Assembly: GCA_028707125.1 (NCBI GenBank)
Contig: JAQTUX010000002.1
Coordinates: 144,355 to 208,354, forward strand
Source of the DNA: Candidatus Omnitrophota bacterium
GTDB taxonomy: Bacteria > Omnitrophota > Gorgyraeia > Gygaellales > JAQTUX01
Length of the DNA stretch: 64,000 bases
Direction of reading: 5' to 3'
In this document: positions 1,134 to 63,816 of the stretch, in pieces
Layout: each line of letters begins with the position of its first letter
How positions within the stretch are numbered: the stretch's first letter is position 1
Notes under the pieces: generated by a model
Told to the model about the DNA's origin: nothing
Databases searched by the model: none
The model's input: only the letters and a program-made list of their open reading frames with translations
Position numbers and translations under genes: made by a program

Positions 1134-2267
1134 CTAACCTATCCTTTCAACAATATCTTCAACGTATTCAGCTATGGCAGGGGCAGCTGTCAGGCCCGGG
1201 GACTCTATGCCGATAAGATTGATAAGGCCGGGAAACCCGATCCGGCTCTCCTCCTGGATTACAAAATCACGGAATCCTTCGCCTTTACCTTGAAGTTTTG
1301 GCCGGATGCCCGCGGTGTCAGGAACTAAATCCTGCTCTTCTAAAAAAGGAAGCAACCCTGCCGCGGAATTTAAGAATTTTCCCTTCTCCGCGACATCAAC
1401 ATTGTAGTCAAACCTGTCTCTTTCAACGTAGCGGCTGTCAGGCCCTAACCGCAGGCCTCCCGCTAAATCCAATGTAGCATGGACGCCCAGTCCGCCGTTA
1501 TTCTCCGGCACAGGGTATATCAAACGATTAATTAATCCGCATTTCTGCGGGGAATTCACCCTGAAATACTGTCCCTTGCAATATTTCAATCTATAATCCC
1601 GGTCTTCTATATTGATCCCCGCCATCTTCGCTATATTATCTGATTCAAGGCCGGCGCTGTTGATCACGATCTTGGCGTGAAATTTAAAAGTATCTCCTGA
1701 AGAACCCTCTATGGCAACCTCATAACCGTCGGTTGACCTGCGCAGGCCGGCCACATTGGAATCATAAGCGATATCCCCCCTGTTATCTTTCAGCCGCTGA
1801 ACAAAATACTTCATTAAACTGTGCGAATCAATTATTCCCGTCGCAGGAGAGAATAATGCCGCCTCGGCTTTAATATTCGGCTCCATCCTCGCGATTTCGG
1901 TCTTTGTCAAGATCTTAAGCTCTCTGGCGCCGCTGGCGCCGCCTTGTTTTAAAAGCTCTTCCAACGCGCTCGTCTCTTTATCATTTACTGCTACGATCAG
2001 TTTTCCCGTCTGCCTGTAAGGGATCTTATTTTTTGCGCAGATCTCATAAAGCATTCTATTCCCCTCAACGCACGCCTTTGCCTTTAAAGAGCCGGGATCA
2101 TAATATATACCTCCGTGAATAACCTCGCTATTGCGGCTGCTTGTCTCCTGACCGAAAGACTTATGCCGTTCTAAAACGTAGACCGACCGATTTTGTTCAG
2201 AAACCTTTGCGGCTATACCTAAACCTACAACGCCCGCTCCGATAATAACTATACCTGCACGCTCCAT
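1134..2267 (-). CDS. FAD-dependent oxidoreductase of the DAO/L-2-hydroxyglutarate-oxidase type.
   Basis: 377 aa. The N-terminus has a dinucleotide-binding motif, VIIGAGVVGLGIAAK...VLER. It is tightly coupled to the neighbouring genes. Confidence 0.65.
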   Translation of the reverse strand: MERAGIVIIGAGVVGLGIAAKVSEQNRSVYVLERHKSFGQETSSRNSEVIHGGIYYDPGSLKAKACVEGNRMLYEICAKNKIPYRQTGKLIVAVNDKETSALEELLKQGGASGARELKILTKTEIARMEPNIKAEAALFSPATGIIDSHSLMKYFVQRLKDNRGDIAYDSNVAGLRRSTDGYEVAIEGSSGDTFKFHAKIVINSAGLESDNIAKMAGINIEDRDYRLKYCKGQYFRVNSPQKCGLINRLIYPVPENNGGLGVHATLDLAGGLRLGPDSRYVERDRFDYNVDVAEKGKFLNSAAGLLPFLEEQDLVPDTAGIRPKLQGKGEGFRDFVIQEESRIGFPGLINLIGIESPGLTAAPAIAEYVEDIVERIG

Positions 2268-3332
2268 CTATTCTGCCAGCTCCACCGCCGCATTCACGAC
2301 TTCCCGGACGCCGGGATAGAACTTACGCTCCAGGACGTATCCCGACGGGGTAGGGATATCAGGCGCGGCGATCCTTTTAACCGGCTTCTTTAGAAAATTC
2401 AGCCCCTTTTCAGATACCATCGCCGCGATCTCAGCTGTAACCCCTGCCGTCTTCCATCCGGTATCAACTATAATAAGCCTTCCTGTCTTCTTCAGAGAGG
2501 TCAATATAATATCCTCATCCAGAGGGTTCAACGTTCTTAAATCTATGACCTCCGCTTCAATACCCCTGGTTCTTAGCTCCTCTGCCGCGCGCAATGCTTC
2601 TATGACCATATAAGAAGCGCCTACGATCGTAACGTCGCCGCCCTCTTTTCTTATAACTCCCTTGCCGAAAGGTATGGCATATAATTTATCCGGAACGTAA
2701 CCCGTATGCTTAAACGCCCATCGGTGTTCGATGAACACTACCGGATCGTCATCAAGTACGCTTGACACCAATAGGCCCTTCGCGTCATAGGGGGTGCTGG
2801 GCATAACAAGCTTAAGCCCCGGCACATGCATAAATAATCCCTGGAGCGCCTGGGAATGCTGCGCCCCCGAGCCCCAGCCGCGGCCGATGACCGCCCATAT
2901 TACGATCGGGACATTGCTCCTGCCTCCGAACATATAACGCCACTTTGAGGCATGATTAACGATCTGATCCATCGCCAACAGAAGAAAGTCGGGCCGGTTG
3001 TGCATATAAATCGGGCGCATGCCTACAAGCGCCGCCCCTACCGCGACCCCTGTCAACGCGTCCTCTGACAAAGGCGTATCAAATATTCTCTGTGAGCCGT
3101 ATTTTTTATGCAGATTCAATGTCGCGCCGAACATGCCCGATGGGTCGTCCACCCCCTGCCCCATTATAAAAACACGGCTGTCTATGGCAAGTATCTGTTC
3201 AAGCGTCTCATAAATGGCCTGTGTATAAGGTATGTTCCTGGCCTCTGATTTACCGCTATGATCAAAGCCGGGCTCCTCTTTTTCTATACTCTTCTTGTCC
3301 CAGTCAAAACTTATTTTTGATCTATTCGCCAT
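2268..3332 (-). CDS. E1 beta-like subunit of a TPP-dependent enzyme (2-oxoacid dehydrogenase E1 beta / transketolase C-terminal family).
   Basis: It has the pyrimidine-binding and C-terminal transketolase-like domains. The ORF track extends it to 3395. I prefer the ATG at 3332 (MANRSK...) because it nearly removes the 74-nt overlap with the upstream gene, but the start is uncertain. Confidence 0.75.
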   Translation of the reverse strand: MANRSKISFDWDKKSIEKEEPGFDHSGKSEARNIPYTQAIYETLEQILAIDSRVFIMGQGVDDPSGMFGATLNLHKKYGSQRIFDTPLSEDALTGVAVGAALVGMRPIYMHNRPDFLLLAMDQIVNHASKWRYMFGGRSNVPIVIWAVIGRGWGSGAQHSQALQGLFMHVPGLKLVMPSTPYDAKGLLVSSVLDDDPVVFIEHRWAFKHTGYVPDKLYAIPFGKGVIRKEGGDVTIVGASYMVIEALRAAEELRTRGIEAEVIDLRTLNPLDEDIILTSLKKTGRLIIVDTGWKTAGVTAEIAAMVSEKGLNFLKKPVKRIAAPDIPTPSGYVLERKFYPGVREVVNAAVELAE

Positions 3333-4338
3333 CGCTATAAAGATATTTTGATACTTCCGCCTCATCGGGAAACGGGCTATTCCGGGCAAACTCAAATGCC
3401 TCGTCTATCTCTTTATCAAAGGCCTGATTAAAACAAGTGATATCTGATCCGCTTATTACCTGTCTATCCAGCAAGAAGAGCTCAAAATTTTTAAGCGGGC
3501 ACCTTTCCATCCAGGCGTCCAATTCTTCCTGTGTCCTGTACCCCAACTCTATATCGGTGCCGCCCCCCGAATGCCCGCACCATCTGTAAGTGCAAAATTC
3601 TATAAAAGAAGGCCCTTTACCGCGGCGCGCGTCCTCAACCGCCCTTCTGCCTACGCAGTAAACATCGACCACATTGTTGCCGTCCGCCTTGTAACGCGAA
3701 ATACCGAAGCCGTCAAAACGCTCATATATATCTTTGGAAGGCTGACGATTACTCCTGTGAGAGCATACCGCATAAAGATTATTCTCACAGACGTATATCA
3801 CAGGCAGTCTTTTAAGCATCGCGAAATTAATACTTTCATATAATACGCCCTCGTCAACCGCCCCATCGCCGAATAATACCATCGTCACCCGCTTATTTCC
3901 CTGCAACAAAGAACCGAGGGCGGCCCCTGTGGCAATAGGTATACCGCCGGCTACGATCGAAGAAGAACCCAGTAATCCCACTGAGTTATCGATCAAATGC
4001 ATTGAGCCGCCCCTGCCGCGGGAACAACCGGTTTCCCTGCCGTATAATTCGGCAATAAGCGATTTTAAGTCCCCGCCCTTAGCAAGATAATGGCCGTGCC
4101 CTCTGTAATTACTAAGAAGGTAATCCTCCTTATCCAGATGGGCGCACATACCGGCAGGTATTGCCTCCTGCCCCTTGCAGAGATGAACCGGCGTCTTCAT
4201 TTCGTCTTTGGGATACTCCTCTTCTATCCTGACCTGCACCTTTCTTATCCTCAACATCTGTTTATAAAGCCGGACCAAATGCTCCCGGGGGATATCCCCG
4301 ATATTCTTATCGTAATTGATCATGGGGCCTTTTTCCAT
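3322..4338 (-). CDS. E1 alpha subunit of a TPP-dependent dehydrogenase (pyruvate or acetoin dehydrogenase E1 alpha family).
   Basis: YRGHGH...GRGGSMHL and CENNLYA motifs are typical of E1 alpha. Its start overlaps the stop of the upstream B12 radical SAM gene (TAATG at 4336-4340). No E2 or E3 gene lies nearby. Confidence 0.8.
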   Translation of the reverse strand: MEKGPMINYDKNIGDIPREHLVRLYKQMLRIRKVQVRIEEEYPKDEMKTPVHLCKGQEAIPAGMCAHLDKEDYLLSNYRGHGHYLAKGGDLKSLIAELYGRETGCSRGRGGSMHLIDNSVGLLGSSSIVAGGIPIATGAALGSLLQGNKRVTMVLFGDGAVDEGVLYESINFAMLKRLPVIYVCENNLYAVCSHRSNRQPSKDIYERFDGFGISRYKADGNNVVDVYCVGRRAVEDARRGKGPSFIEFCTYRWCGHSGGGTDIELGYRTQEELDAWMERCPLKNFELFLLDRQVISGSDITCFNQAFDKEIDEAFEFARNSPFPDEAEVSKYLYSDGE

Positions 4339-7535: not shown

Positions 7536-8468
7536 TTAAACGTTGGAAAACTGATTTCTTCTTACGACCTGGTATCCTTTGATCAATTCTGAAATACCTT
7601 CTGGGAGCGAAATATCGGGTTTATATCCTGTGCCTTTGATCTTTCCGTTGCTTACGATATAATCCCTCTTGTCGGGATCCTCGCCTACCTCTGCCTCGGT
7701 AAAATAAAAATCGGGCGCCTGTTTCTTGATCTCCTCGCACAACTCCCGCTTGCTAAGGTTGGCATTGCTTAAACCCACATTATATGTTTGATTTTTCATC
7801 CGTTCAAAATTATTCAAACAGTGGATGAATGCCTTGGCAACATCCCGCACGTGAATATAGTTTCTTTTAAAATGCGCCTCAAAAATAACCAGAAACCTGT
7901 CCGTTACCGCGCGATAAGTAAAATCATTCACCAAGAGGTCCAGCCGCATGCGGGGACTGACGCCGAATGCCGTAGCCAGCCTCAAAGTGATGCTGTTGCC
8001 CGCGTCCAATATGGCCTTCTCCGCCTCAACCTTCAAATTACCGTAAAGGGAAACCGGACGTAAGGGCGTCTCTTCGGTACAGAAGATGCCCTTTTCTCCC
8101 ACCCCATATCCGCTGTTAGTGGTAGGGTAAATAACAATCTGCTCCCTGCTGCGCAAACCCAGTATTGTCTTCACCGCATCCACGATAATCGTCCTGGCCT
8201 CGATAGGGCGCATCTTACAGAGCGGGGCGCCGGTCAGGCAGGCCAGGGGAAAGACGGCATCCGCCCCCTTTAGATGACGAGATATCAAATCCCTGTCTCG
8301 CGCATCGCCCCTGATTATGGCCAGATTACCGTAATGGCAGCAATCCAACAGAGGGCTCTGATTATACATGAAATTGTCAATAACCGTCACTTCAAAATCA
8401 TTGGCCAATAATTGCGGGACCAATACAGAACCTATATAACCCGCTCCTCCAGTTACCAATATCTTCAT
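7536..8468 (-). CDS. NAD-dependent epimerase/dehydratase (extended SDR).
   Basis: MKILVTGGAGYIGS and a YxxxK motif. I moved the start to the ATG at 8468, which follows a GGGAGG RBS. The ORF track extends it to 8495. Confidence 0.75.
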   Translation of the reverse strand: MKILVTGGAGYIGSVLVPQLLANDFEVTVIDNFMYNQSPLLDCCHYGNLAIIRGDARDRDLISRHLKGADAVFPLACLTGAPLCKMRPIEARTIIVDAVKTILGLRSREQIVIYPTTNSGYGVGEKGIFCTEETPLRPVSLYGNLKVEAEKAILDAGNSITLRLATAFGVSPRMRLDLLVNDFTYRAVTDRFLVIFEAHFKRNYIHVRDVAKAFIHCLNNFERMKNQTYNVGLSNANLSKRELCEEIKKQAPDFYFTEAEVGEDPDKRDYIVSNGKIKGTGYKPDISLPEGISELIKGYQVVRRNQFSNV

Positions 8469-46495: not shown

Positions 46496-47622
46496 TTATT
46501 CCTCCTGAAAAATGTCTTTATTGTTTTTACAATATGATCCATTTCCTCGCAGGATAATCCCGGATGTATGGGCAGCGACAAGACCTGCCTTGATATCCTC
46601 TCGGTAACCGGCAGCCGGGCCGCCTGTTTTGAACGGCCCGCGTAAAAGCGGCTACGGTGCACAGGATCAAAATATACCTTTGTGGCGATACCTTTTGAAG
46701 CAAGGTATTCCCTCAGCTGCTCCCTGCGCCTTTTGACTATCACGGAGTACAGTTGATATACGTTAAAATGGCCCTTCGGCGGCTCAAAGACAGCGATCTC
46801 CTCGATCTGTCCTAATCCGCCGGACATATACTCGGCCTTCTGCCGCCTCAGCGCGATAATCTTAGCGGCCCTTCTCAACTGGGACATGCCGACTGCCGCC
46901 GCGATGCTTGACATCCTGAAATTATAACCCAGGGAAACGTAGTCAAACGACTCTGAAGAAGCAAAATAATTGCCCGCCCCGGACCTGCCGTGCGACCTTA
47001 TAAGTTTCAATTTCTCATATATCCTAGGAGAATCTGTCAGAGCCGCGCCGCCTTCGCCCGTGGTGATTATTTTATTCTGGCAGAAACTAAGCATGGCGCA
47101 ATCGCCGAAGGCGCCGGCCATTTTACCGCCTGCCATCGCGCCGAATGATTCGGCGGCGTCCTCTATAAGGAACAGGCCGCGCCTCTTTGATATCTTTTTT
47201 AATTCCTCTATGCCGCAAGGGCAGCCGCCATAATGAACGGGGATTATCGCCCTGGTCCTGGGAGTGATCCTCTTCTTGACATCCTCCGGATCCAGGCCAA
47301 AGGTTTCCTCTTCTATATCCGCGAATACCGGCCTGGCCCCGACAAAAAGCGGGGCGTTGGCTGTAGCAATGAATGTAAAAGAAGGGACGATAACCTCATC
47401 ACCCTCCCCGATCCCATAAGCCAATAAAGCGGCGTGCAGAGCTGAAGTGCCGGAATTGAAGGCCAGGCAATACTTAACGCCGATGTACCGGGCCAGCTCA
47501 TTCTCAAACGCCCTTATAGCCGGCCCCTCTGCCCAGTACATCCCTGACCTGATAACAGAGGCAGCAGCCCTTACATCGTCTTCATTCCAATCTATCTTAA
47601 ATAAAGGCACCTTCTGCTTCAT
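46492..47622 (-). CDS. legC: DegT-family aminotransferase of the nonulosonic acid pathway (LegC/PseC-like).
   Basis: DegT motifs IVPSFTFIATANA and DAAESFGA. It is adjacent to the dehydratase and the NeuB/NeuC homologues. Confidence 0.8.
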   Translation of the reverse strand: MKQKVPLFKIDWNEDDVRAAASVIRSGMYWAEGPAIRAFENELARYIGVKYCLAFNSGTSALHAALLAYGIGEGDEVIVPSFTFIATANAPLFVGARPVFADIEEETFGLDPEDVKKRITPRTRAIIPVHYGGCPCGIEELKKISKRRGLFLIEDAAESFGAMAGGKMAGAFGDCAMLSFCQNKIITTGEGGAALTDSPRIYEKLKLIRSHGRSGAGNYFASSESFDYVSLGYNFRMSSIAAAVGMSQLRRAAKIIALRRQKAEYMSGGLGQIEEIAVFEPPKGHFNVYQLYSVIVKRRREQLREYLASKGIATKVYFDPVHRSRFYAGRSKQAARLPVTERISRQVLSLPIHPGLSCEEMDHIVKTIKTFFRRNK

Positions 47623-47626
47623 ATCC

Positions 47627-48067
47627 CTACCTTGAAAATGTTTCTATTTCTTTCCTGGTCAATTTCCTCGCTACCTTTGCCGGAACCCCGTAGGCCAGCA
47701 CATTGGCCGGTATATCTTTATTTACAAAACTGAAGGCGCCGATGACCGAATTCTCACCGATCTTTACCGCCGGCATTATCACGCTGTGGCTGCCGATCCT
47801 GCAATTCCTGCTCAAGGTAACCGGCCCCTGTTTATTGTCAATAGTAGAAACGGAGTATACGGAGCAATGAGACCCTATCTGGACATAATCCTCTATGGCC
47901 ACGCCCTTCTTGGCGTTAATATACGTATAGGCCCCTATATCGGTCTTGTAACCCAACTTAAAATTGCCCTTATGCTGAACCAACCAGTTGAATTTCGTAG
48001 GCCTGCCTTCTTCTATTTTCGGGTATTTCCAATCCTTGAATCTTGCGCCCATGTCGCTCCTCATCAA
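47627..48067 (-). CDS. Hexapeptide-repeat (left-handed beta-helix) acyl/acetyltransferase.
   Basis: 146 aa with isoleucine-patch repeats (VQIGSHCSVYSV...CRIGSHSVIMPAVKIGENSVIGAFSFV). Confidence 0.7.
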   Translation of the reverse strand: MMRSDMGARFKDWKYPKIEEGRPTKFNWLVQHKGNFKLGYKTDIGAYTYINAKKGVAIEDYVQIGSHCSVYSVSTIDNKQGPVTLSRNCRIGSHSVIMPAVKIGENSVIGAFSFVNKDIPANVLAYGVPAKVARKLTRKEIETFSR

Positions 48068-60281: not shown

Positions 60282-61213
60282 TCAAAATTTCCGGAATACC
60301 AGCCTATAGTCAGATTTAACGCGTCATTAAAATTATATTCTGGCCGCCAGCCCAAGGTCCGGATTTTATGCGTGTCAAGGCTGTATCTAAAATCGTGGCC
60401 GAGGCGATCTTTCACGCGCCTTATCATATTATGGCCCTTATTCATTTTCTTCAATATGAGTTTTGTGAGATTCAAATTGGTAATCTCGGAATTGCTGGCA
60501 ATATTGTAAACCCCTTCTTTCCTGCCCTTACGGATAACCGTATCTATTGCGGCGCAGTTATCGTACACATAAATCCAGTCCCTGATATTCTCCCCCCGGC
60601 TGTAAAGCGGGACCTTCTTGTTCCTAAGTAAATTGGTGATAAAAAGCGGGATTACCTTCTCAGGATATTGATACGGCCCGAAATTATTGCCGCTCCTGGT
60701 GATTATAACGGGAAGTCCGTAGGTGTTGGCGTAAGACATGCAGAGCAGGTCCGCTCCTGCCTTGCTTGCTGAATAGGGATTGCCCGGAGCAAGAGGAGAA
60801 TCTTCACGGAACCTGCCCCTTTTTATGCTCCCGTAGACTTCGTCGGTAGATATCTGAACGAATAGCCCGGCGCCGCTTCCCTTGCATGCCTCAAGCAGAT
60901 TGCGCACACCCGCTATGTTGGTGTCAATAAAACAGCTTGAATCATTAATGGAACGGTCAACGTGCGTCTCGGCCGCGAAATTAACTATAACATCCGCCTT
61001 CCCGGCCAATCCCGTAACCAGGCGCCTGTCGCGTATATCCCCTTTTACAAACCTGTGCCTCTTATCGGCCTTAAGCGAGGCAATATTATCTATGTTGCCG
61101 GCATATGTAAGCTTATCCAGATTGATTACCTCTGCCGCCTTGTATTTATTCAATATGAATTTAACAAAATTGGAGCCGATGAATCCGGCTCCGCCCGTGA
61201 TCAGATATCTCAT
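60257..61213 (-). CDS. rfbB: dTDP-glucose 4,6-dehydratase (RmlB).
   Basis: MRYLITGGAGFIGSNFV...STDEVYG...YSASKAGADLL. 318 aa. Confidence 0.85.
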   Translation of the reverse strand: MRYLITGGAGFIGSNFVKFILNKYKAAEVINLDKLTYAGNIDNIASLKADKRHRFVKGDIRDRRLVTGLAGKADVIVNFAAETHVDRSINDSSCFIDTNIAGVRNLLEACKGSGAGLFVQISTDEVYGSIKRGRFREDSPLAPGNPYSASKAGADLLCMSYANTYGLPVIITRSGNNFGPYQYPEKVIPLFITNLLRNKKVPLYSRGENIRDWIYVYDNCAAIDTVIRKGRKEGVYNIASNSEITNLNLTKLILKKMNKGHNMIRRVKDRLGHDFRYSLDTHKIRTLGWRPEYNFNDALNLTIGWYSGNFDWWKKRII

Positions 61214-61932
61214 TTCCGCTCTTTTCTCGCGATAAGATTATTGGCCCTGAGAAGCGATTCGTGCGTCCCGCAGTCAGTCCACCATCCGCTTAATATATCA
61301 AAAAACATCTCCTGTCTCTCTATATAGGCATTATTTACATCCGTTATCTCCAGCTCGCCCCGCTTAGACGGCTTGAGAGTGCGTATAATATCAAAGACCC
61401 GTGGATCATACATATATATGCCGGTGACTATATAATCGGACTTGGGATTCCTGGGCTTCTCCTGGATTGAAACTATCCGCCTGCCCCTTAATTCCACCAC
61501 TCCGAAACGTTCAGGGTCCGGCGCCTTCTTTATCAATATCCTCGCCCCTCTTCTCTGCCGCCTGAATTTTTCAACATAACGCTTTATGGATTTCTCCACG
61601 ACATTATCTCCCAGGATAACCGCTATTTTGTCTCCGTCGGCAAAATGCTCCGTAAGGGCCAGCGCCGCGGCGATCCCGCCCTCGCCTTGCTGATAAGTAT
61701 AGTTAATATGTTTTAAGCCGAAATCCGAACCGTTTCCCAGAAGCCGCAGGAAATCTCCGGCGTTATTGCCGCCCGTAACGATCATGATATCCGTAATGCC
61801 TGCCTCAACAAGGGCCATGATAGGGTAATACACCATCGGCCGGCAATAGACAGGTAGAAGGTGCTTGTTTGTGATGCGGGTCAACGGCTCTAAACGCTTA
61901 CCCAACCCGCCTGCCAAAATTACGCCTTTCAT
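61210..61932 (-). CDS. rfbA: Glucose-1-phosphate thymidylyltransferase-like nucleotidyltransferase (short-form RmlA).
   Basis: MKGVILAGGLGKRLEPLT...KHLLPV. 240 aa. It is adjacent to rmlB and rmlD. Confidence 0.6.
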   Translation of the reverse strand: MKGVILAGGLGKRLEPLTRITNKHLLPVYCRPMVYYPIMALVEAGITDIMIVTGGNNAGDFLRLLGNGSDFGLKHINYTYQQGEGGIAAALALTEHFADGDKIAVILGDNVVEKSIKRYVEKFRRQRRGARILIKKAPDPERFGVVELRGRRIVSIQEKPRNPKSDYIVTGIYMYDPRVFDIIRTLKPSKRGELEITDVNNAYIERQEMFFDILSGWWTDCGTHESLLRANNLIARKERK

Positions 61933-61945
61933 ATTATCACGCGTC

Positions 61946-62006
61946 CATTTTCCTCTACAGGCTTACGCCTGTAGAATCCTCATTCCCCACACGTAAGTGT
62001 GGGGTC
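61946..62006 (-). repeat. Copy A of a ~60 bp double-hairpin intergenic element, between the rmlC-like and rmlA genes.
   Basis: On the transcribed strand it reads GACCCCACACTTACGTGTGGGG-n10-CTACAGGCGTAAGCCTGTAG-AGGAAAATG. That is two perfect 8 bp stems with 4 nt loops. It is about 90% identical to copy B at 62465-62524. Confidence 0.8.
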
Positions 62007-62459
62007 CGGATGTAACGGCCTCAAATTATCCCAGTCGTAATATTCATTCTTTATGCGGAATTCATCCGGTTTGTTTCTATCGTACTCGGGATCAATGCAG
62101 TTTATTATAAATGCCTCTCCCGCTAAACTCTTAAATGCGTGGAGCACGCCTTTGGGGATACCTACAAGGCAAAAGTTTCCCTCGCCGATCTCGAATTCGT
62201 TGAGCTCGTTCTTTGTCCTGCTGTTATCGCGTATATCGACTAAAACGAGCTTTATCTTTCCTTTGATGCAGCAGAAGAAATCGGCCTGATCTTTATGCAG
62301 ATGGAACTTGTCCTTGTCCTTCGTGACCCCTTCAAATGCCGTTGTCAGATATACCTGCCGCGGCTGGATACCTGTTTCCGATACCCGGAATATCTCCATA
62401 AGCCGCCCGCGCTCGTCGGAGATCACCTTAAGCTTCTTAATCCTGACGCCTTCTATCAT
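61980..62459 (-). CDS. RmlC-like cupin: a dTDP-4-keto-6-deoxyhexose 3,5-epimerase, or more likely an FdtA/QdtA-type 3,4-ketoisomerase.
   Basis: 159 aa. It has DERGRLMEI, FHLHKDQADFFCCIKGKIKLVLVD (the HxH(K) pattern of FdtA-type isomerases, against RGLHFQ in RmlC) and GIPKGVLHAF. The last ~10 codons overlap repeat copy A. Confidence 0.55.
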   Translation of the reverse strand: MIEGVRIKKLKVISDERGRLMEIFRVSETGIQPRQVYLTTAFEGVTKDKDKFHLHKDQADFFCCIKGKIKLVLVDIRDNSRTKNELNEFEIGEGNFCLVGIPKGVLHAFKSLAGEAFIINCIDPEYDRNKPDEFRIKNEYYDWDNLRPLHPDPTLTCGE

Positions 62460-62464
62460 ACGCT

Positions 62465-62524
62465 CATTTCCTCTACAGGCTTACGCCTGTAGTATCATCA
62501 TGCCCCACACGTAAGTGTGGGGTC
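62465..62524 (-). repeat. Copy B of the double-hairpin element, between ugd and the rmlC-like gene.
   Basis: It has the same two stems and the same AGGAAATG tail. It begins immediately after the ugd TAG stop and ends at the mini-ORF and the rmlC-like start. Confidence 0.8.
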
Positions 62525-63816
62525 TATCTCCTGCCGATCCCGCAATAATGGAACCCCATCTTCTTCATTTTATCGGGTTCGTAAATATTCCTCCCGTCTA
62601 CAATTATGGGGTGCCTCATAAGTTTCTTTATCCTGGCGAGATCCAGCTCTTTAAACTGCGGCCATTCCGTAATAAATACCGCGCAATCGCAGGAACGGAA
62701 ACAACCGTAGAGGTCGCGGGAAAATTCCACGCCCGCGATCATATCCTTTGCCTTGCGCATGGCATGCGGGTCGTACGCCTTGATCTTTGCCCCTTCGCTC
62801 TGAAGGCGCCTTATTATGTCAATGGAAGGCGCGTTGCGCAGGTCATCGGTGTCCGGCTTAAAGGCCAGGCCCAATACCGCGATGGTCTTCCCCCTTACGA
62901 TCCAGAGCATACTTTCGATCTTTTTCATGATATTTATCTTCTGTTCCTCGTTCACCCGTTCCACCGCCTTTAATAATTCAAAGTCATACCCTATTTTCTG
63001 CGCGATATTGATAAATGCCTGAACGTCTTTGGGAAAACAACTGCCTCCGTATCCTGCTCCGGCGTCAAGAAAGGAGCGCCCTATCCTCCTGTCCAGCCCC
63101 ATTCCCTCCGCGACCTTGACCACGTCCGCCCCTACCCTGTCGCAAACCTGCGATACGGCATTTATAAAAGATATCTTCGCGGCCAGGAAAGAATTACTGG
63201 CATGCTTTATTATCTCGGCGGACTTGATATCGGTTACTATGATCGGGCAATCAAGCGGCTCATAAAGATCCCTTAATATCCTCTCCGCGCGTTTTGATTC
63301 TACGCCGATAACGACCCTGTCCGGATGCATAAAGTCGGATATCGCCTGGCCTTCCCGCAGGAATTCCGGATTGGATGCGATGTCAAACTTGACCTTTCTT
63401 TTATTATTCAGCCCCACTGTATGCTCTACCCATTTGCCTGTCTCAACCGGGACCGTGGACTTCTCCACTATGAGCCGATAGGAACGCATATATTTGGCGA
63501 TATTACGCGCGACCTTTTCCACGCCGCTTAAATCCGCCTCTCCACTTTCCCGCGAGGGAGTACCTACCGTTATAAATATTACCTGCGAGCTATCTACCGC
63601 CTCCTTGATGCTGGAAGAAAAAAACAGGCGCCTGCCGCGCGCGTTATCCCTGACCATCTCTTCTAAGCCGGGTTCATATATGGGGATATCCATCCTTTTC
63701 AGGCGCTTGATCTTCTTTTCATCGTTGTCCACGCATATGACACGGTTACCCAATTGAGCAAAGCAGGCGCCCGTAACCAGGCCCACATAACCCGTCCCGA
63801 CGATCGCGATATCCAT
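62524..63816 (-). CDS. ugd: UDP-glucose 6-dehydrogenase.
   Basis: MDIAIVGTGYVGLVTGACFA and the catalytic motif GAGYGGSCFPKD. An AAGGAGAG RBS lies 5 nt upstream. 430 aa. Confidence 0.85.
   Translation of the reverse strand: MDIAIVGTGYVGLVTGACFAQLGNRVICVDNDEKKIKRLKRMDIPIYEPGLEEMVRDNARGRRLFFSSSIKEAVDSSQVIFITVGTPSRESGEADLSGVEKVARNIAKYMRSYRLIVEKSTVPVETGKWVEHTVGLNNKRKVKFDIASNPEFLREGQAISDFMHPDRVVIGVESKRAERILRDLYEPLDCPIIVTDIKSAEIIKHASNSFLAAKISFINAVSQVCDRVGADVVKVAEGMGLDRRIGRSFLDAGAGYGGSCFPKDVQAFINIAQKIGYDFELLKAVERVNEEQKINIMKKIESMLWIVRGKTIAVLGLAFKPDTDDLRNAPSIDIIRRLQSEGAKIKAYDPHAMRKAKDMIAGVEFSRDLYGCFRSCDCAVFITEWPQFKELDLARIKKLMRHPIIVDGRNIYEPDKMKKMGFHYCGIGRR

Follow-up and report, generated by a model that had tools for sequence, protein, structure and literature searches.

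Doublets of repetitive extragenic palindromic (REP) sequences, known as bacterial interspersed mosaic elements (BIMEs) or REPINs, have an inverted layout and a canonical foot of GTAG or CGTC (PMC3733652, PMC6006769). REP copies have been described inside the tnpA_REP genes of subclass 2.4 (PMC6006769), and in E. coli REPs located within 15 nt of a stop codon stall ribosomes and lower expression of the upstream gene (Liang 2015, as cited in PMC12306157). The IS200/IS605 enzymes recognise subterminal hairpins of ~20 nt with the help of a short foot guide, act on single-stranded DNA (ssDNA) and produce no target duplication. Here we compare with these systems a double-hairpin element that occupies two adjacent gaps of an operon in a Candidatus Omnitrophota bacterium (GenBank assembly GCA_028707125.1, contig JAQTUX010000002.1, positions 144,355 to 208,354; this whole stretch of 64,000 nt is referred to as the window). 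A sequence-only reading of the window had described the element as a mobile or duplicated RNA element that couples the translation of neighbouring genes. The explanation that we favour, with a probability of roughly 70%, is that the copies are miniature non-coding mobile DNA elements, each built of two inverted REP-like palindromes, that were copied in trans by an IS200-like transposase of the HUH-Y1 type.

Two repeat copies between ugd and rmlA

The right end of the window is a minus-strand operon in which ugd is followed by an RmlC-like gene, rmlA and then rmlB and rmlD. A repeat search of the window returned a single direct-repeat family of two copies, at 61949-62006 (copy A) and 62467-62524 (copy B), which are 58 nt long and 95% identical (55/58, slightly above the ~90% first claimed), with all three mismatches in the spacer. 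Copy B fills the gap between ugd and the rmlC-like gene, and copy A the one that follows, before rmlA. Read along the mRNA, a copy consists of a first hairpin (hp1, CCCCACAC-TTAC-GTGTGGGG), a 10-nt spacer, a second hairpin (hp2, CTACAGGC-GTAA-GCCTGTAG) and AGGAAA(A)TG. The 20-mers CCCCACACTTACGTGTGGGG and CTACAGGCGTAAGCCTGTAG each occur exactly twice in the window, where 100 shuffles lead one to expect none, and no further copy turned up in it when up to 3 mismatches were allowed or when the covariance model introduced below was used. The features of the locus, all on the minus strand, are the following.

62524-63816, minus strand: ugd, UDP-glucose 6-dehydrogenase, the cistron upstream of copy B (Pfam PF03721, PF00984, PF03720)
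62465-62525, minus strand: element copy B, whole, in the ugd/RmlC-like gap (repeat family; covariance model 77.8 bits, E 2.8e-15)
62503-62522, minus strand: copy B hp1, CCCCACAC-TTAC-GTGTGGGG, beginning 1 nt past the ugd TAG stop (exact match, predicted fold)
62493-62502, minus strand: copy B spacer, CATGATGATA; the family consensus begins AAT(G) and ends (G)AT[A/T] (sequence)
62473-62492, minus strand: copy B hp2, CTACAGGC-GTAA-GCCTGTAG, with a GNRA loop on the mRNA strand (exact match, fold)
62467-62472, minus strand: copy B AGGAAA, the right end of the element, resembling a Shine-Dalgarno; the RmlC-like ATG at 62459 is 9 nt away from the end of the GAGGA core (sequence)
62456-62467, minus strand: mini-ORF B, ATG AGC GTA TGA (MSV*), whose TGA overlaps the RmlC-like ATG (sequence)
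61980-62459, minus strand: RmlC-like cupin (dTDP-4-dehydrorhamnose 3,5-epimerase family), 159 aa, between both copies (Pfam PF00908; 100% match to a protein of an Omnitrophica metagenome-assembled genome, MAG)
61947-62007, minus strand: element copy A, whole, in the RmlC-like/rmlA gap (repeat family; covariance model 78.4 bits, E 2e-15)
61985-62004, minus strand: copy A hp1, translated as the RmlC-like tail PTLTCGE*, with the TGA stop at 61980-61982 within the spacer (exact match, sequence, homologs)
61975-61984, minus strand: copy A spacer, AATGAGGATT (sequence)
61955-61974, minus strand: copy A hp2, CTACAGGC-GTAA-GCCTGTAG (exact match, fold)
61948-61954, minus strand: copy A AGGAAAA; the rmlA ATG is 18 nt away from the end of the GAGGA core, too distant for a normal Shine-Dalgarno (sequence)
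61937-61948, minus strand: mini-ORF A, ATG GAC GCG TGA (MDA*), ending 4 nt before the rmlA ATG at 61932 (sequence)
61210-61932, minus strand: rmlA-like nucleotidyltransferase, the cistron downstream of copy A (Pfam PF00483)

What had been observed from the letters alone, the gene calls included, is confirmed. The two hairpins of each copy are perfect 8-bp stems. Both are predicted by a fold check of the mRNA (minus) strand (z = -5.4 and -4.7), and the opposite strand folds at least as strongly (z = -8.6 and -5.7). Copy A does provide the last codons of the RmlC-like open reading frame (ORF): the protein has a MIEGV start that agrees with its homologs, which stop soon after ...YYDWDNLRPL, and it runs on as HPD-PTLTCGE* through copy A hp1. 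Both mini-ORFs exist and MSV* overlaps the next start as described; the distance from MDA* to rmlA is 4 nt (TAAT) and not the 3 nt originally given. Rfam yielded no match at the gathering threshold in the whole 64-kb window, and matches to RT-6 in a scan of the region (E <= 10), at 18 and 15 bits against a threshold of 46.7, were dismissed as chance.

The history of the two insertions can be read from related genomes, which are cited here by the L-numbers of the 8-kb loci fetched around sequence matches (1.02 Mb in total). Three related Omnitrophota (L064, L067, L068) keep the order LptD-ugd-rmlC-like-rmlA-rmlB-rmlD and lack the element at both sites. Their ugd/rmlC-like gap measures 2 nt in L068 and holds 54-58 nt of unrelated sequence in L064 and L067, and the rmlC-like/rmlA junction is an overlap in L064 and spans 16 nt in L067, while in L068 the two genes are separated by 80 nt of unrelated sequence. 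The same gene order without the element implies that both window copies were gained in this lineage, and copies A and B are thus, as judged from synteny, lineage-specific insertions. No target-site duplication is visible at either window copy, and across the family the only conserved target position next to the element is -1 (A, in 77% of elements), with no conserved 4-5 nt target found. In L064 (3945-4000) the ugd/rmlC-like gap contains about four tandem 10-mers that resemble GGTTACAAGA, and in the Planctomycetia loci L006, L012 and L054 runs of the complementary CTTGTAAC motif lie directly downstream of the element; these motifs may constitute a second type of short intergenic repeat.

The same synteny bears on the idea that the repeats are recombination sites, similar to integron attC sites, or the traces of a local duplication, that brought in the RmlC-like gene. 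Direct repeats do flank this one small gene, and one of them overlaps its 3' end; however, the gene occupies the same ugd-rmlA position in relatives that have no repeats, and the element is found singly across hundreds of unrelated gene settings. On the repeat-free synteny, together with the absence of RYYYAAC...GTTRRRY core sites from the sequence, an integron attC site or gene cassette was rejected, and we give next to no credence to the idea.

A double-hairpin family in Omnitrophota and Planctomycetota

The relatives of the window element were collected by two scans, one for the exact 20-mer of hp1 in one genome per species and one of metagenomes with hp2 alone, independent of hp1. The exact hp1 was recovered at 63 loci in species-representative genomes, compared with about one expected by chance for a 20-mer (our own estimate), and these loci belong mostly to Phycisphaerae, Pirellulales, Planctomycetia, Sedimentisphaerales and Omnitrophota, with several MAGs carrying 5-7 exact copies each. 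Most of them share the design hp1-AATGGATA-hp2-AGG, that is, A-hp1-AATG(N)GATA-hp2-AGG, and the broader family follows the layout A-hp1-AAT...AT[A/T]-hp2-(AGG), with AGG after hp2 in about half of the members. The second hairpin differs by phylum, being CCACACAC-GTGA/GTAA-GTGTGTGG in Planctomycetota and CTACAGGC-GTRA-GCCTGTAG in Omnitrophota. From 24 elements of the hp1 scan a covariance model was built, which scores the window copies at 78 bits and also picks up copies with an inexact hp1. The hp2 scan gave 92 loci; a script found a strict hp1-like hairpin 4-20 nt upstream in 40 of the 86 non-redundant matches, and further matches have, by eye, variant or expanded forms of hp1. The hp1 loops of this hp2-ascertained set are TTCC, TTAC or TCCC. 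In one subtype hp2 is preceded by AATT and followed by T, and AGG is missing; some copies of this subtype are in the opposite orientation. Compensatory changes are seen in 7 of the 8 pairs of hp2 (first set, selected for perfect stems) and in 5 of the 8 pairs of hp1 (hp2-ascertained set, in which 98.5% of cells are paired). Over both sets the share of paired cells is 98-100%, and we take these changes as a sign of selection on the hairpins.

In total the scans yielded about 100 non-redundant elements in Omnitrophota and Planctomycetota, 98 of which were gathered as doublets with a generic finder, and both window repeats are true members of this widespread family. The existence of so large a family, and its absence from the same intergenic sites in related genomes, bear out the earlier suggestion of a mobile or duplicated element. 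A search of the literature, which was not exhaustive, found no description of this hairpin family, no report that links REPs to Omnitrophica and no relevant paper that contains the hairpin sequence, and the family is apparently undescribed so far. The REP families GTAG-20 and GTAG-21 of R. baltica were considered as possible equivalents and ruled out on comparison of the encoded peptides, which differ.

The two hairpins are related to each other by symmetry. In 62 of the 98 elements the loop of hp1 is the exact reverse complement of the loop of hp2 (TTAC/GTAA in 34, TTCC/GGAA in 28), and in the remaining 36 the loop pairs are mostly off by one base. A GNRA loop is formed by hp2 on the sense strand and by hp1 on the antisense one. 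The same mirror symmetry holds for the flanks, with A before hp1 (77%) and AAT after it, and AT[A/T] before hp2 and A or T after it. Judged by these features, hp1 and hp2 are one unit, consisting of a NAT[A/T] foot, an 8-bp stem and a GNRA loop, placed in opposite orientations with the feet inward. Stem variants in the hp2-ascertained set comprise wobble pairs in 9 cells versus true mismatches in 7; wobbles are thus about as frequent as mismatches, and nothing here indicates selection confined to a single RNA strand. A kissing-loop role for the complementary loops was set aside, because closed tetraloops and mirror-image flanks fit an inverted DNA repeat better.

The identical 20-nt hp1 also occurs in other phyla, within different multi-hairpin repeats. 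In Owenweeksia (L013, L023, L047, L053) it stands between hairpins of the GTGCCTTCGGCAC type and in Acidobacteriota (L032, L039, L063) between hairpins of the GTCCGCTGAAGCGGAC type; it is carried as well by Bacteroidales (L018, L024), and the Pyrinomonadaceae locus L004 has it in a tandem array, with a distant Y1 gene (28% identity) ~500 nt away. The hp1 hairpin module seems, then, to be reused by several repeat families. A phage origin was considered and set aside; the only viral contig with an exact hp1 is L164 (374-393; IMG/VR UViG 3300029587_000245). In several Omnitrophota copies the hp1 loop is enlarged by a second GC-rich palindrome, for example CCCCACAC-TTAC-CTGCCTGCCGGCAGGCAGGC-GTGTGGGG (L073 at ~7860-7900, L081 at ~1640-1690, L087/L095, L088, L114, L134 and L143), and it looks as if another palindromic element had been inserted right after TTAC or TTCC. 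A composite arrangement is seen in L055 (1599-1696), in the order hp1-AAGTTACGAT-AAGAGGATA-hp1-AATGGATA-hp2-AGTTACGATG, with the 9-nt sequence AGTTACGAT on both sides of the inserted unit; this repeat may be the footprint of an insertion or duplication.

The same hairpins in a Y1 transposase gene

Some members of the family are part of a protein-coding gene. In L058 (2817-3179) a 120-aa ORF matches Y1_Tnp (Pfam PF01797, IS200-like) with an E-value of 1e-28. Its hp1 is in frame and encodes TPHLRVGN, the next 90 nt encode FWARRYGYKEV...RRYVREQ, the helix that bears the catalytic tyrosine, and GATA-hp2 encodes IPHT, with the TGA of the GTGA loop as the stop codon. A TPHLRVGN-like motif is present in most of 17 aligned homologs, down to ~45% identity and including Omnitrophica proteins, and about half of them end in IPHT or IPHM. 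Two Omnitrophota genes were reached through the protein sequence and are thus independent of the hairpin search (L069, L071). In L069, hp1 is CCCCACGC-TTCC-GCGTGGGG, in which a compensatory change in the DNA makes the peptide TPRFRVGN; as this change alters the peptide, it is the hairpin that is conserved rather than the peptide. The hp2 of the same gene is of the window type (CTACAGGC-GGAA-GCCTGTAG), provides a TAG stop and is followed by AGGAAAAATATG, the start of fabF. In L071 a complete doublet lies directly after the Y1 stop, in L038 and in the homolog P0187 (...SGYYRRKPVEGKR...) the whole mini-element is in frame within the Y1 gene, and the same is apparently true of L043, according to its sequence and its Y1 match.

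Y1 genes are present in 18 of the fetched loci, or 15 distinct ones when three duplicate loci are merged. Of these, nine belong as close homologs to the hairpin-bearing family, and six are distant and lie beside related hairpins. Y1_Tnp genes with hairpins inside or adjacent were recorded in L016, L035, L038, L043, L046, L048, L058, L069, L071, L152 and L163. The proteins contain the motifs DHVH, FWARRYGY and Y[IV]R[NE]Q ('Y---Q'), which fit class 1, IS200-like, in Table 1 of PMC6006769. The corresponding segment of the L058 gene is hp1-AATGCC...(90 nt encoding the tyrosine helix)...AAAAGGATA-hp2, and that of the mini-element is hp1-AATGGATA-hp2, such that the mini-element looks like the hp1...hp2 segment of a Y1 gene minus its interior.

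Taken together, the reverse-complement GNRA loop of hp1, the mirror-image flanks, the folding of both strands and the presence of the hairpins in the gene of an ssDNA transposase suggest that the element is a DNA-level repeat, for which any effects on RNA would be secondary, and they make its earlier description as an RNA element doubtful. The hairpins are likely the ssDNA substrates of the ~120-aa IS200-like HUH-Y1 transposase, which would recognise them on single strands and copy the doublets in trans, as has been proposed for REPs with RAYTs and shown for IS200/IS605. Copy B would then have landed just past the ugd stop, and copy A in the 3' end of the RmlC-like gene, replacing its tail.

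In the Omnitrophota locus L069 (1-10300) the plsX-fabH-fabD-fabF operon is broken by several small passenger genes, namely a GIY-YIG gene, two 23S-rRNA-IVP (PF05635) genes and the Y1 gene. After the fab operon comes a row of four genes of the nucleotidyltransferase type (PF01909), of which three form pairs with a HEPN gene. In Pirellulales and Sedimentisphaerales (L058 at 1616-4227; L027, L037, L050) a Y1 gene and several doublets share one operon, whose ORFs beside the Y1 gene we take, from translations read by eye, to be subunits of a V-type ATPase. When L050 is compared with L037, one gap holds a shortened hybrid of hp1 and hp2, which suggests recombination between the two similar hairpins.

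Placement in operons and comparison with known systems

Several points weigh against the explanation of the copies as miniatures mobilised by a Y1 enzyme. The first alignment contained perfect stems only, with hp1 or hp2 fixed by the search pattern, which makes conservation look stronger than it is. No Y1 gene lies within the 64-kb window, so a cognate enzyme in the source organism is presumed from related genomes. The elements lack the unpaired 5' GT[AG]G/CGTC tag of REPs, having inward NAT[A/T] feet instead, and the only GTAG/GTGG in them belongs to the hp2 stem, of which it is the paired 3' end. Unlike RAYTs, which are of class 2 with a YIxxNP-type motif, the Y1 protein here is a minimal, class-1-like one of 120 aa (DHVH ... 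Y[IV]R[NE]Q), and the system is not a textbook REP-RAYT pair. The last point is polarity. Seventy-three non-redundant elements were oriented by the CCCC stem of hp1, and their neighbours were called by a crude longest-ORF rule; the upstream gene was on the same strand in 49 cases and on the opposite strand in 5, the downstream gene in 50 and 6, respectively, and the remainder were undecidable. About 90% of the decidable elements are thus co-oriented with the flanking genes, which is not the random orientation of a generic repeat. Together with the built-in AGGA this exceeds the expectation for a purely selfish repeat, and also fits a selected RNA function.

The placement of the elements is precise. 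The upstream stop typically ends 0-14 nt before hp1, and in the GATA-hp2-AGG subtype the true start codon typically follows 6-13 nt past hp2; the element effectively forms the intercistronic region and, to judge from its sequence, provides the Shine-Dalgarno for the next gene. Copy B, with its GAGGA 9 nt before the RmlC-like ATG, matches this common pattern, and copy A leaves rmlA 18 nt from AGGA. The window itself is over its entire length (1-64000) an unbroken run of minus-strand ORFs with tiny or overlapping junctions; the eight ORFs checked at its right end are sugar-nucleotide and glycosyltransferase genes, and a seeming gap at 47622-48064 holds a stop-free frame of <150 aa and is thus not non-coding DNA.

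Polarity and placement would be expected if the element were primarily a cis-acting RNA module of Planctomycetota and Omnitrophota operons, in which hp1 caps the upstream 3' end, the A/U-rich linker is an endonuclease site, the GNRA loop of hp2 with AGGA makes a protected 5' end and ribosome entry site, and the link to a transposase is secondary. The GNRA tetraloop of hp2 is indeed always on the sense strand, and elements at sites shared by species-level relatives are retained and change more slowly than their surroundings, with 95-100% identity versus 68-96% for the mostly coding flanks (hp1 is fixed by the search, and the other ~30 nt are nearly identical too). However, in related Omnitrophota whose gene order is identical the corresponding operon junctions do without any element, the hp1 loop, as a reverse complement of GNRA, is not a stable RNA tetraloop, and loops and flanks are mirror-symmetric. 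The antisense strand folds equally well or better, the balance of wobble pairs and mismatches described above points the same way, and the hairpins are embedded in HUH-Y1 genes in which DNA-level compensatory changes alter the protein. The AATT-hp2-T subtype, without AGG and sometimes in opposite orientation, is a further difficulty. We therefore consider a primary RNA function unlikely.

A second proposal, made in the sequence-only reading, is that ribosomes load at AGGAAA(A)TG, translate the three-codon mini-ORF and reinitiate on the downstream gene. It has in its favour the presence of a three-codon ORF in both window copies, placed so that the TGA of copy B overlaps the next ATG and the ORF of copy A ends 4 nt before that of rmlA, which has no good Shine-Dalgarno of its own; an ATGA overlap is also seen in L080. 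The family speaks differently. The short ORF is not conserved in position across the ~86 hp2-ascertained copies, most of which have no ATG within 12 nt past hp2 except the real start, and in most members AGGA is followed by that start 6-13 nt later. Short ORFs after hp2 are sporadic and differ in length and frame (L080, L101, L105 and, by eye, L017), at a rate judged compatible with chance. A spacing of 2-4 nt between Shine-Dalgarno and start codon is too short for efficient initiation, and the mini-ORF ATG lies 2-4 nt past the GGA core; in copy B it is 2-3 nt from the AGGA, which is itself at a normal 9 nt from the true RmlC-like start. Since the ATG of the window copies is at the right edge of the shared repeat, it would have come with the element and not have arisen separately at every site, and an ATG dropped upstream of an existing start is soon closed by out-of-frame stops. 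The mini-ORFs look incidental, as baggage of the element edge, and reinitiation as the purpose of the element appears unsupported by the family and very improbable, although it may occur at rmlA downstream of copy A.

If the elements are transposase-copied DNA repeats, their polarity may be explained if, in tight operons, the only insertions to survive are those that give the downstream gene a ribosome-binding site again; the AGGA directly after hp2 would be the reason that the element is tolerated in short operon gaps. In the transcript, the hairpins probably behave like the REPs of E. coli: hp1, at 15 nt or less from the stop, could make terminating ribosomes stall or shield the 3' end upstream, hp2 with AGGA would allow the next cistron to be initiated independently, and both might protect the 3' and 5' RNA ends left if the A/U-rich linker is cleaved. 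The mini-ORFs would be by-products of the ATG at the right edge. In relatives, ugd, the RmlC-like gene and rmlA are abutting, overlapping or within ~80 nt of each other; to judge from the sequences, both insertions probably uncoupled the translation of these genes. A more far-reaching reading is possible, if on the unlikely side: an undescribed REP-type system common to Omnitrophota and Planctomycetota, in which a class-1 Y1 enzyme has substrate hairpins in its own frame, bracketing the catalytic-tyrosine helix, and the miniatures have been domesticated as polar operon modules that rewire translational coupling and mRNA stability by means of a post-stop hairpin and a GNRA hairpin with Shine-Dalgarno.

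A repeat that occupies many operon gaps of Omnitrophota and Planctomycetota thereby receives a name and a searchable model; both phyla are largely uncultured and have almost unannotated non-coding DNA. The element accounts for unusual stop codons and for unusual C-terminal ends of proteins, the final 7 residues of the RmlC-like protein among them. With it, REP-like systems come to include an IS200-like enzyme of class 1 whose gene holds its own hairpins in frame. Its polarity relative to transcription is unusually strong, and the family lends itself to the question of how selfish hairpin repeats turn into useful operon parts.

Compared with the REP/BIME/REPIN-RAYT systems of E. coli and Pseudomonas, the family has the same short GC-rich palindromes, repeated within genomes and often in inverted doublets, which lie between co-directional genes near stops, sometimes supply stop codons or enter ORFs, and are conserved at shared sites between species; in related genomes, as in REPtrons, an HUH-Y1 gene carries or is flanked by the same hairpins. 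It departs from them in that the hairpins form part of the Y1 reading frame and its stop codon, in the strong polarity relative to genes and the built-in AGGA, and in an identical 20-nt hairpin across phyla. Likeness to IS200/IS605 and their ORF-less derivatives, the palindrome-associated transposable elements (PATEs), resides in the Pfam Y1_Tnp match and the class 1 'Y---Q' motif, in the apparent lack of target duplication, and in a miniature that shares its terminal hairpins with a tnpA-bearing parent and resembles an internal deletion (hp1-AATG...GGATA-hp2). In IS200/IS605, however, the end hairpins are outside tnpA and in the same orientation, whereas here they are inverted, inside the ORF and at its end, and the Y1 gene sits in host operons (fab and, apparently, V-ATPase) like a passenger cistron. 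Intercistronic stabiliser or processing hairpins, such as the malE-malF REP and those of Rhodobacter puf, likewise stand after a stop and before the next ribosome-binding site, and differential stability and translation uncoupling are plausible by analogy; those are single-locus features or generic REPs, and the symmetry of the double-hairpin element points to a DNA-level origin. The finding is thus real and more general than first assumed, and is best filed as a variant of the REP/Y1-transposase theme and not as a new translational device, distinguished by a class-1-like enzyme, hairpins in the reading frame of that enzyme, NAT[A/T] feet, polarity with a built-in Shine-Dalgarno and a hairpin shared across phyla.

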